IMG/VR virus record: IMGVR_UViG_3300042401_001747
DNA from: a virus
DNA length: 64,000 nucleotides
Direction: 5' to 3' (one strand)
Position numbers and translations under genes: made by a program. The notes below the pieces were generated by a model. The model searched no databases. It saw only the letters and a list, made by a program, of their open reading frames with translations, and was not told the DNA's origin. Below, piece by piece: positions 28,020 to 36,770 of this stretch (the first letter of the stretch is position 1; each line of letters begins with the position of its first letter).

Positions 28020-31000
28020 TTACTTTTTTTTGTTTCTTGTACCTTCGTACAACGTTTGACCGTTCTCAATTCTTTCTTTTGCGGTTCTTAACTGCTCAGC
28101 GCTAAAGATGTCATCGAGTGTGTGGGTTGTTCCAAAAACTTCGTTGAACTTGTCAACCATTGTTTGCATTTCTGAAACAGAAAATACAACCTCGGTGCCT
28201 TTCTTTATGCCCCATGCTGAACCTTTTGCTGCAGCAGCATCGTTAAGCGCGGTTGCCATGTCCGTAGCTCCAATTATCTTGTTGCGGCTCGCAATACTGT
28301 TGAGCCTGTTGGCTTTAGAGAAGCTTTTATCTATGAACTCATTGAGGGCTTCATAAACCGCATACTTGGGTCTTTGTAGTTCTTCGTCAAATAGCTGGCC
28401 TGTCTTGCCTTCCTTCCAAATGTCTGCTGCGTTTGGTAGAACTCCTTTACGAATCATGTGAGCAATAGTCGCCGTTGGGATTCCCTTCTTTGCCCAGTCT
28501 GAATTGACCCCAGTGCTCTCCACCCCAAATGCCTCAGAAAGAATCTCACTAAGTCTTGATATCCACTCTTTCTTATCTATCCCTAGGTACTTAATTAAAG
28601 GCTCAACATCAAAGTCTTTTCTATTTGTCTTGTCAATCTTCATTACTTCATCACCATCATCGGGAAGGGATGGGGAGTTTAAAAGTTCGTCGAAGCTTTG
28701 TCCGTAAAGGTCAATTTCGGCTTCCGAATCCCCCTCGAAAGGGTCGTCAGCGGCAAATCGTCCCGTTGCACGGAACATTGCTCTCTCGTCGACCTCTCCT
28801 AGCTGGGAGTACTCATCTGGGCTGATTGCTTCTTCTTCGTCTTGGTCGAACCAATAAGGGAATGCGTCCTTGCCGAATGTTTCAATGATGAAACGGTCGC
28901 GCATGTTTGCTCTACCGGCATTCTCCATTGCCATGTCCACTTCGGAAGTGATGCTTTCTGTGTTCCCTTCTGGGGATGGAATTATCTTTTTTATCTCATC
29001 TCTTGAAACTGGAGCAAAATAGCGCCACGCTTCAAGACCGGGTTGATTTCCAAGTTCCGCAATCAAAAGCCTCACTGCATCATGGTTTATTCCAGCATCT
29101 GGGTTTTCAATTTTCTGCTTGTTTTGTCCACTCAAGCCCAAAAGGCTTGCAATTTCCTGTCTTGTGGCAGAACGTGACCGAATAACTTTTCCGTTCATGG
29201 AGAATGATTCTGGAATTCGAAGCTGCTCAGCAAGGGCATCCACTGACAGCATCCATGTTTCTGCCGATGGGCTATCGTTGACTAGGTTGTCTCCAACTCG
29301 TCCAACTCGAACCCTGTTTTGGCGAGCCTTCATGGCTTTGCCTACTTCTGCCATGGCGTTTTTTGTTTTATCTTTGCTTTCAGCATTTATTTCAATGCCT
29401 CTCTCCCTGAAGCCAGCCCATGTCTGCATCGCAAAATCTATTAAGCGACGATTCTTGGCCGAATTGGGGTCTCCGGAAATTCTTATTGCAGCAAGGTCTT
29501 GGGCGCTTATGGCACCAGGGGTGACGCGACTACTGCTTCTTACACCCATTCTTCTAGACAGACGACGGCCAGGGCCGGGGTAGTTTGACGTTCCGCTAGA
29601 GAGACGCATCTGACTATCGCCATCGTCGCCCATTTCATCCGCATCAATTAAGTCATCTATGTCTACTTCAGATTCGTAATCGTCTGGGTCGTGGACAACA
29701 TCATTAATATCCTTATCCACGTCGATGACCAGGTCTGGGTCAATTTCAATTTCTTTTTCTTCAGGTGTTTCTCGGTTTGGAAGGTTGTCTTCACCTATGT
29801 CGTCAAGACTCATCTGATTCAGTTCTTCATAGAACTTTGGAAGAGAGACGCCGTCTTTGTCCCCAAAGGCTCCTTTGTCTAGTTCTGGCGGAATATGACC
29901 GTCCGCCACTGCTTTCTTAATTGCTGCGCGAACATCTTTTGTTGATTCATCGTGGAGGTAGTACTTAAACCCCTTCCAGCCTGGGTCAATCATCTTTTTC
30001 GCACGAGAAAAGGCTACGTGAATGAGGTTTGTTTCTTCCATAAAGGCAAGTCCTGCTTGTCCTTGTGGAATGTTTGCAGCCAATGAATCACGAGGGTCGC
30101 CCAGGTCTTCTGCTACTGCAACAAAATCCGACTCTCGGCCTTTTGAGAGCTGAATGGTTGTAATTTCTACGTCTCCGCCAGGGCCTTGGGCTGCGTCCCT
30201 CATCGCTTGACCGATGTCATTCAGTATCTTTGTTGACTCTTCAAGATTTTCGCCTTCAATTACGAAGCCGTCAAACGCCCTGCGCTTTGCTCCACCCTTT
30301 GGTCCGCCTCTTTCAGCGTCTTGCATTATCTTGACTTTTTCGGATAAACCAAGATTTAAAATTATTTTTTCTAGGTCTCTTCTGTAGCGACCATTGCCTA
30401 CCCTCTGGTTAGGGGGTATATTTTTCCCTTCGGAACCGTCAGGAAGTGTCTGTGGTCTACCCGTGTCTACACCATCACCGGTAATAATAATTTTCCCAGT
30501 TGGTTTTCCAGGATTTTTTGCGTCGCCGCCCGTTATTTCCAGCTGAGCATATACGGCCTGGCGACCGTCAGTCGAATTGCTAGGTGGAGGAATTATTACG
30601 ATTCTTTCTAATTGAGAATCTTTTGCTTGAGGCGCATCTGCTGCTTTGGAAGCTTTTGATATGGCATCAATTTCTTCCGGTTCTTTTCTGAAATTCTCAA
30701 GCGTTATGCTTTTTCTTTCTGGAAGAATTGATGCAGGGATAACAATAATTTTTTCTTTGCCGGTTTTTGCATCTATTTCAATTTTTTGCTTGCCGTTGAG
30801 AAGGGTCAACATTCCTGATATGCCAAGAGCAGAACCGCCAGCGGGAGGCTTTTGCATTATGAGCTTAAAAGCGCTCCTGGCTTGCTGCCCTGCTTTTTGA
30901 TTTATTACCCTATTTAGTCCACCCTGGTCAAAAATTGGCCCAATCCATCCCGAAACTTCGGGAAGACCACGCTTATCTTTTTCTGCCTGAGGCATAAAGA

Positions 31001-36770: not shown

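Follow-up and report, generated by a model that had tools for sequence, protein, structure and literature searches.

A prohead protease gene of an uncultured tailed phage continues into ArdC-like and helicase modules past a conserved slippery run

Why should the gene of a phage prohead protease continue, in a single frame, into an anti-restriction module and a helicase? The question is raised by positions 28020-36770 (-) of IMG/VR virus record IMGVR_UViG_3300042401_001747, a stretch of 64,000 nucleotides (hereafter the window, meaning the whole DNA that was analysed) from an uncultured contractile-tailed phage. The locus is one uninterrupted open reading frame (ORF) of 2916 codons with a product of 324 kDa, here called the giant, and it starts 126 nt past the portal gene. 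A first-pass annotation, made from the letters alone, had placed it right after the portal, and a portal gene with a PF04860 match does lie directly upstream. The fusion, its conservation, the identities of its domains, the design of a slip site at the protease/cargo joint and the enrichment of a short motif are established by the sequence and its comparison with relatives. In our judgement it is rather probable that the gene encodes a cargo polyprotein that is carried by the protease, cut apart, and made in a way like that of Gag and Gag-Pol. The argument draws on the following features.

36897..38957 (-), portal gene (PF04860, E 7e-51), directly upstream of the giant
36231..36770 (-), S78 (HK97-type) prohead protease domain, residues 1-180 (Pfam PF04586; phrog_80/3244, head maturation protease)
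35781..36173 (-), small beta domain, residues 200-260, then a Pro/Met-rich linker, residues 260-330 (sequence; AlphaFold2 (AF2) model)
35526..35753 (-), four-Cys insert, C-x2-C-x8-C-x11-C (C381, C384, C393, C405)
35148..35333 (-), conserved alpha/beta domain, residues 480-541 (alignment A1; predicted local distance difference test (pLDDT) 80-87)
35139..35148 (-), A10 slippery run, CTA AAA AAA AAA, encoding L541 and K542-K544
34788..35138 (-), conserved post-slip segment, residues 545-661, E-x-K-A-x-G-Y-R-L-G-R ... PDPTPDGPGS (alignment A3)
33504..34355 (-), complete ArdC-like module, residues 806-1089 (Pfam, phrog_7245, phmmer)
29901..33173 (-), UvrD-like superfamily 1 (SF1) helicase, residues ~1200-2290 (PF00580/PF13245; phrog_1967, DNA helicase)
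28023..29603 (-), C-terminal tail module of 527 aa, residues 2390-2916 (alignment A2)

The first ~545 residues (N-module) begin with the protease. An HK97-type protease had been proposed for residues 1 to ~180, and this is borne out by PF04586 (Peptidase_S78), which matches residues 32-175 with 42.9 bits against a gathering cut-off of 21, and by phrog_80 (E 6.5e-26). H70 (in WGHNW), S134 (in EWSIGY) and H166 are invariant columns among the 32 sequences of alignment A1, and H70 and S134 are presumably the catalytic residues, by analogy with HK97 gp4. The AF2 model has a pLDDT of ~80 for residues 200-260 and of <40 for the linker at 260-330. The four-cysteine domain noticed in the first reading is present as a pattern at residues 381-405; it is missing in stand-alone relatives of 460 aa, and no Pfam match was obtained over residues 340-450 at E <= 0.01. 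An identity of this insert as HiPIP was considered and dropped, as no Pfam profile supports it and the AF2 model is disordered there. The conserved domain at residues 480-541 is where the stand-alone 460-aa proteases end, and it also closes the short product predicted below.

The cargo includes an ArdC-like module. Pfam places ArdcN at residues 820-888 and MPTase-PolyVal at residues 946-1069 (E 8.6e-39), PHROGs returns phrog_7245, an anti-restriction protein, and in phmmer residues 822-1089 are collinear with residues 27-293 (of 297-305) of ArdC from plasmid R388 (6sna/6i89; E 2e-35). The zincin motif HETVH lies at 33774-33788, precisely where the first-pass annotation had put it behind an ArdC-N domain, and both it and EELIAEIG at 33681-33704, with the downstream Glu, align with R388 ArdC. 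By domain content and collinearity the module is a complete ArdC, for which anti-restriction activity and binding of single-stranded DNA are predicted. The following helicase was likewise read correctly as an SF1 enzyme with all motifs, large insertions and a Walker A box (AGAGTGKTT) at 33021-33047. PF00580 (UvrD-helicase) matches residues 1659-1705 with 42.7 bits against a cut-off of 23, AAA_19 (PF13245) matches around residues 1650-1705, and the motifs were found in order at residues 1216 (Q), 1242 (I), 1313 (Ia), 1662 (II), 1689 (III), 1718 (IV), 2206 (V) and 2251 (VI), with insertions of ~340 aa between Ia and II and of ~480 aa between IV and V. The UvrD C-terminal profile PF13538 scores 16.6 bits in the window, under its cut-off of 27.4; relatives reach 26.1-30 bits with UvrD C-terminal profiles, and only the PF13361 matches among them pass their cut-off. 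The tail module, correctly described before as a ~530-aa stretch without known family, is mostly helical (AF2 pLDDT 81.6) and always last in giants (terminal in 20 lineages). It gave no Pfam match (E <= 1) and no ESM Atlas match; against the PDB, Foldseek gave E >= 1, and the VIA-wide best Z was 4.7 over 76 residues of a helical subdomain.

A fusion of this kind could come from an assembly artefact or a decaying pseudogene fusion, an explanation that can scarcely be credited and for which the unusual length is the only argument. Scanning IMG/VR with residues 1-557 yielded 540 relatives. From these, 80 loci were kept, and in every one with a sufficiently long contig the portal gene is followed by a giant of 2560-3896 aa. 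The 51 giant ORFs in this size range, ~45 of them complete, have the same order of modules: protease, four-Cys insert, conserved C-terminal domain, variable stretch, ArdC-N, zincin, helicase and tail. In a collection of 5.8 billion proteins, the N-module is matched by 292 clusters in the size range 1603-5103 aa; ArdcN, MPTase and UvrD are present in most of them, and in some only S78 is recognised. The family as a whole has roughly 1,400 members. Because the same domain order is kept in the 51 giants and the 292 clusters, the fusion is not a misassembly, and the concern raised on this point by the first-pass annotation is answered; the ORF recurs, at 50-100% identity and with domain order and catalytic motifs intact, in dozens of independent metagenome assemblies.

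A survey of S78 fusions for variable cargo had also been recommended, and the cargo does differ among relatives. Across giants the protease is 77-100% identical, and identity in the cargo falls to 25-50%. Alternative domains among the clusters include Sigma70_r4, pentapeptide repeats, DEAD/ResIII, KTSC and HTH. In L080:465-9845, Sigma70_r4 (residues 941-980) lies between N-module and ArdC; pentapeptide repeats are found in forms of 900-1230 aa (e.g. P0150), and DEAD/ResIII and second helicases in those of 4100-4760 aa. Judged by portal and protease, the closest relatives in culture, at 40-44% identity, are Gordonia phages Hanem and GMA6 and Brevibacterium phage Cantare, actinobacterial myoviruses in which the protease is an ordinary gene of 454 aa beside the capsid gene; by these relatives, freshwater Actinobacteria are the probable hosts. 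In Hanem (L084, 9181-25151) the 12 kb from portal to protease hold an RNA ligase, a VIP2-like ADP-ribosyltransferase and a 971-aa protein, and these separate genes may be unfused counterparts of the head cargo.

The joint between protease and cargo is marked by the A10 run, the sole run of ten in the window, and a run of A9-A11 stands at the same codon in 77 of the 80 loci. Pairwise identity among 35 distinct contexts is 0.99 in the run versus 0.58 and 0.41 in its 30-nt flanks. In 38 of 38 distinct contexts a stop follows within 0-5 codons in each of the two other frames, most often within 1 and 2, against a background of 0.083 for such close stops at random in-frame positions of the same genes. 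In the window, a message with A9 stops after 2 codons (545 aa) and one with A11 after 5 (549 aa), which would give products of ~60 kDa that are in essence the stand-alone protease, and eight protein clusters of 534-548 aa end near the run. The sequence AAA-AAA-AAA occurs 19 times in 19 giants, once in each, as the single long A run of that giant, and none of the 55 other Lys triplets is free of AAG, though AAA makes up 56% of the Lys codons. Together, the near stops in both frames and the fact that all-AAA Lys triplets are avoided outside the run indicate selection on the post-slip outcome. Run and close stops have the design of dnaX-type slippage known from Thermus, and the comparison suggests that the joint is a conserved recoding site from which both a bare protease and a protease-cargo form would be made. 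A conserved slippery run at the joint therefore also means that the fusion is probably made beside a bare protease of 545-549 aa and is not the sole product, a point that the first-pass annotation had missed.

The same run could instead act at the level of DNA, as a contingency switch or as a hot spot that is tolerated, with replication slippage giving subpopulations with and without cargo. Such runs are hypermutable too (Baranov et al.), and run length does differ among assemblies (A9, A10, A11 and A13), which fits instability of the DNA as well as slippage at the RNA level; the frame is lost precisely at the run in four loci, namely L042, L066, L077 (A9) and L083 (A13). Against this explanation, ~93% of full-coverage clusters are in frame and the close stops and avoided all-AAA triplets indicate selection on what follows a slip; moreover, RNA polymerases slip on A9-A10 anyway, and both mechanisms are compatible. 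A switch at the DNA level thus appears improbable. Frameshifts splitting the ORF had been named in advance as evidence against the fusion, and they do occur in a few percent of related assemblies, but because the breaks always lie exactly at the A run they refine the reading rather than refute it.

In more distant relatives a stand-alone protease of 456-470 aa has its C-terminus aligned to the column of the run (alignment A1), so that the run marks an ancestral gene boundary. In L081 and L082 a stand-alone protease gene ends with TCA AAA AAA TAA TAG, and in L081 a giant of 3322 aa (11386-21354) lies in the -1 frame, which is open from 11344, 40 nt upstream. The layout in L081, as in Gag-Pol, is that of a canonical A_AAA_AAA heptamer in the zero frame with a stop of that frame behind it and an overlapping homologous -1 ORF, and the post-slip segment of the window is homologous to the first residues of the L081 clade giant (hhalign probability 95%, E 4e-8). 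The L078 clade has an A10 run of the same design ~80 codons further downstream. The 3322-aa giant of L081/L082 lacks ArdC and helicase and shows only a weak NUDIX match; its repeat is STRS, in 12 copies, in place of the LSSG of other clades.

Four sites of the form hydrophobic-[E/S]-x-K flank the domains of the N-module, the last of them just past the A run. They read YEYK (residues 6-9, 36744-36755), ISVK (residues 175-178, 36237-36248), LEVK (residues 441-444, 35439-35450) and IEWK (residues 551-554, 35109-35120). K9, K178 and both the E and the K of the E-x-K at residues 552-554 are invariant in the alignments, and the four sites are possible self-cleavage sites of a Lys-specific HK97-type protease.

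Within the cargo, a different peptide recurs. RLSSG is present in 8 copies in the proteins of the window, versus 0.05 expected from shuffles, and all of them are in giant or unassigned proteins: 2 in the protease giant, 4 in a second giant of 2897 aa (17554-26247 (-), same head module) and 2 in the truncated ORF 2-1573 (-). The relaxed pattern [KR][LFIMV][SN]SG has 12 copies versus 0.47 expected. In the protease giant the copies are placed as follows.

34770..34787 (-), KLNSGK junction motif, residues 662-667
34428..34445 (-), RFSSGK junction motif, residues 776-781, just ahead of ArdC
33225..33239 (-), RLSSG junction motif, residues 1178-1182, at the ArdC/helicase border
29592..29606 (-), RLSSG junction motif, residues 2389-2393, between an acidic linker and the tail

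The pieces predicted from these positions are the following.

Residues 554-663, basic segment, 110 aa, 11.5 kDa, its N-terminal edge set by the E-x-K site
Residues 664-777, second segment, 114 aa, 12.7 kDa
ArdC, 402 aa, 45 kDa
Helicase, 1211 aa, 135 kDa
Tail, 526 aa, 58 kDa

LSSG is also the commonest 4-mer in the giants of relatives, with 8-14 copies each, preceded by K or R in most clades and by S, T or A in the clade L056-L063. In other clades the repeat is GLRS, GLAS or STRS, and this extends to giants with only S78 recognised. The position of the peptide at module borders suggests that ArdC, helicase and tail are cut out of the chain as separate proteins, probably at [KR]-L-S-S-G-type peptides and most likely by the S78 protease. 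The first-pass annotation did not have this point; it named a 'leader motif' in terms too loose to be matched, to which the [KR]-[LF]-[SN]-S-G repeat is the closest actual feature. The second giant has no resemblance to the protease giant and matched nothing in Pfam or the PDB; it has HEHAH (HExxH) near residue 600 and RLSSG at residues 1263, 1313, 1451 and 2543, and is probably another cut-apart head cargo protein, without a protease carrier. The truncated ORF, of >524 aa and no family, runs off the window and has RLSSG at residues 121 and 292; it lies far from the head module and adjoins replication genes.

From these elements a pathway can be proposed. The N-module of ~545 aa, S78 plus its own C-terminal domain, would be the ordinary prohead protease of the phage and would presumably be built into the procapsid like other HK97-type proteases. 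Standard decoding would read through the A10 run into ~2370 aa of cargo, which would enter the head with the protease, and slippage of RNA polymerase or ribosomal frameshifting on the run would lead into either other frame and, since both frames stop within 2-5 codons, would yield the bare protease of 545-549 aa. One gene might in this way supply the carrier alone and the carrier plus cargo at a set ratio. Inside the prohead the chain would be cut at the junction peptides into 45-kDa ArdC, 135-kDa helicase and 58-kDa tail, and the pieces would leave with the DNA and be the first to act on it in a new host, ArdC against restriction as extrapolated from its plasmid homologue. The first-pass annotation had proposed that fusion to the protease loads DNA-acting enzymes; the anatomy it described stands, while their packaging and delivery are the best reading of the comparative evidence, partly supported by the conserved fusion, the position in the head module, the domains typical of polyvalent proteins and the variable cargo. 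Only tentatively do we extend this to a widespread lineage of uncultured tailed phages in which a recoding site, be it an A run decoded in frame or an A_AAA_AAA heptamer with the giant in the -1 frame, would set the number of polyprotein copies per head, the protease would cut at clade-specific peptides, and freed ArdC, helicase and tail would be ejected against host defences.

Several points, besides the differing run lengths, weigh against this pathway. The whole model rests on sequence comparison, from which we infer packaging, slippage, cleavage and ejection. No cultured relative with the fused form was found by tblastn against 50,697 phage records, where matches were to the ArdC part only (<=36% identity) and to the protease domain only (<=44%). 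RNA structure past the slip sites is no better than in shuffles, and the hairpin that is present in L081 has a z of -0.25. For the N-module AF2 gave a poor model (pLDDT 55.6 overall), with only the small domains at residues 200-260 and 480-545 well predicted, and the top rows that Foldseek returns for it are herpesvirus proteases at E 0.08, which is not significant. The 135-kDa helicase would also have to pass through the tail. As the major capsid protein, the portal and a neighbouring 556-aa protein carry no LSSG, the usual substrates of the protease are without the proposed site, whereas a tape-measure-sized protein, which belongs to the tail and not the head, has KLSSG at residue 35 and RVSSG at residue 568; copies in a tail protein are unexpected if the motif is cut only within proheads. 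Finally, another protease could do the cutting, as the chain has its own zincin and the second giant an HExxH. A cis-acting MPTase is less likely as the LSSG cutter because giants with only S78 recognised also carry 6-9 copies of LSSG.

The absence of LSSG from capsid protein and portal and its presence in a tail protein would be accommodated if LSSG-type repeats were flexible-linker, modification or anchoring motifs, with contacts to the capsid interior, the portal or DNA, and the chain stayed whole; the virion RNA polymerase of phage N4 is packaged unprocessed despite an MPTase domain (PMC5512222). We regard this as doubtful. The copies sit at module borders, the pieces they delimit fit stand-alone sizes (402 aa for the ArdC piece versus 297-305 aa for R388 ArdC), and the sequence shifts by clade (LSSG, GLRS, GLAS, STRS) with the repeated placement between domains kept, as in head protease sites of the T4/phiKZ type.

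Cleavage might also occur outside the head. In that case the fusion would only couple synthesis, either the internal zincin or self-cleavage of S78 close to the joint would free the cargo within the infected cell, where it would work late, for example in DNA processing before packaging, being neither encapsidated nor delivered. The chain does have its own MPTase zincin, a domain predicted by Iyer et al. (PMC5512222) to autoprocess polyvalent proteins, an invariant E-x-K follows 7-10 residues past the run (alignment A3), and packaging is a step that we infer. Such a cytoplasmic polyprotein is nevertheless unlikely, considering that the gene stays between portal and capsid genes with a late-type promoter motif common to tail genes, and that the joint is conserved as a recoding site and not as a simple gene boundary. 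Plasmid ArdC, in addition, acts on incoming DNA, and a helicase made late would be useless against restriction of entering DNA.

A protease-borne head cargo has partial precedents. Polyvalent proteins combine ArdC-N, MPTase and helicase domains, have their genes next to those for packaging, and are predicted to enter the virion and to be injected (Iyer, Burroughs, Anand, de Souza and Aravind 2017; PMC5512222), and their assemblin-like peptidase, when present, is C-terminal (PMC5512222). The giant shares with them the many effector domains per chain, the location beside portal-terminase genes and a predicted cleavage into pieces. Unlike in those proteins, its S78 protease is N-terminal (residues 1-180 here and in all relatives examined) and seems to be the carrier instead of MuF or portal, and neither a slippery run at the joint nor an LSSG junction peptide is described in PMC5512222. 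Because the polyvalent-protein concept has already been published (PMC5512222), we regard the giant as a variant and not as a new principle; a full-text literature search gave no report of a protease-ArdC or protease-polyvalent fusion beyond Iyer 2017. Fusions of the MuF/SPP1 gp7 type similarly use a head-assembly protein as vehicle for enzymatic cargo, but in the present case cargo would ride on the maturation protease, which could double as the processing enzyme, and no Pfam match to MuF (Phage_Mu_F) was found in the giant.

In retroviruses and totiviruses, Gag is made alone and as a recoded Gag-Pol, the fusion sets the number of enzyme copies per particle and, in the former as in the latter, cutting is the task of the viral protease. 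The likeness lies in a capsid-associated protein made alone and as a recoded enzyme fusion, which for the giant is a proposal drawn from the genes. The differences are that the present case is a DNA phage, that the carrier is the protease and not a shell protein, and that the window clade would obtain its long form by standard decoding and its short form by slippage, only the L081 clade having the polarity of Gag-Pol. With regard to the run itself, the closest model is dnaX (tau/gamma) of Thermus thermophilus, where an A9 run gives the full-length product at its templated length and leads to ~50% truncated product (PMC1088944) because both other frames stop near the run (PMC1088944). The giant likewise has a sense-strand A9-type run with close stops in both other frames; it is another gene with another function, and slippage is suggested here by comparative sequence alone.

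Internal proteins and Alt of T4 and the ejection proteins of phiKZ and SPN3US are cut at a short consensus by the prohead protease and ejected with the DNA (PMC5694885, PMC7411985). The junction peptide, repeated between domains and shifting by clade, resembles these sites; however, the T4, phiKZ and SPN3US cargos are products of separate genes with capsid-targeting peptides, whereas those of the giant are covalently joined to the protease. ArdC of R388 (6sna, 6i89) shows full-length homology to the module and is a free protein transferred by conjugation, in contrast to a module of a phage head polyprotein.

Controlled loading of enzymes into phage heads is, to our knowledge, known in few cases, such as the targeting peptides of T4, fusions to MuF and the virion RNA polymerase of N4. 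The solution proposed here would be a genetically simple one, with the protease as carrier, the slippery run as dosing device and the junction peptide as cutting site. If true, it would extend a retrovirus-like logic of expression to tailed phages, explain the 'giant ORFs' of freshwater phage metagenomes (hundreds of clusters), and provide a rule for predicting injected anti-defence effectors among phage proteins; in that case the varied cargo, with its sigma-like domains, pentapeptide repeats and helicases of several types, would amount to a list of the tools that counter host defences in the first minute.

Around the giant, the window contains the following further features.

11508..12875 (-), major capsid protein gene (phrog_10, E 6e-57), ~15 kb downstream of the giant and in the same direction
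26263-27933 (-), 556-aa protein without family, between both giants
36803..36838 (-), promoter-like element TAGTTGCA-N22-TATTAT, 33 nt before the ATG of the giant
39285-40616, large terminase (TerL)
50910-52364, tail sheath
53710-58503 (+), tape-measure-sized gene, 1597 aa, no PHROG match

Tail fibre, recombination, ParB-like, PAPS-reductase-like, ribonucleotide reductase and primase genes are also present. The 556-aa neighbour gave no Pfam match at E <= 1 and no PHROG match, and a PepSY/DUF6582 identity considered for it was rejected for lack of a Pfam match even at that threshold; it could be a scaffold. The pattern TAGTTGCA-N22-TAnnnT has 3 matches in the window versus 0.05 expected, the other two being at 50825-50860 (+), before the sheath gene, and at 52885-52920 (+), before the next tail gene, which makes the element a candidate late promoter with unusual spacing. 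At 44547-47309 (+), a ParB-like, a PAPS-reductase-like (phrog_2302, E 1.5e-77) and a second ParB-like gene stand in a row; the pairing recurs in the related contigs L081 and L083, and the row may be a DNA-modification module.

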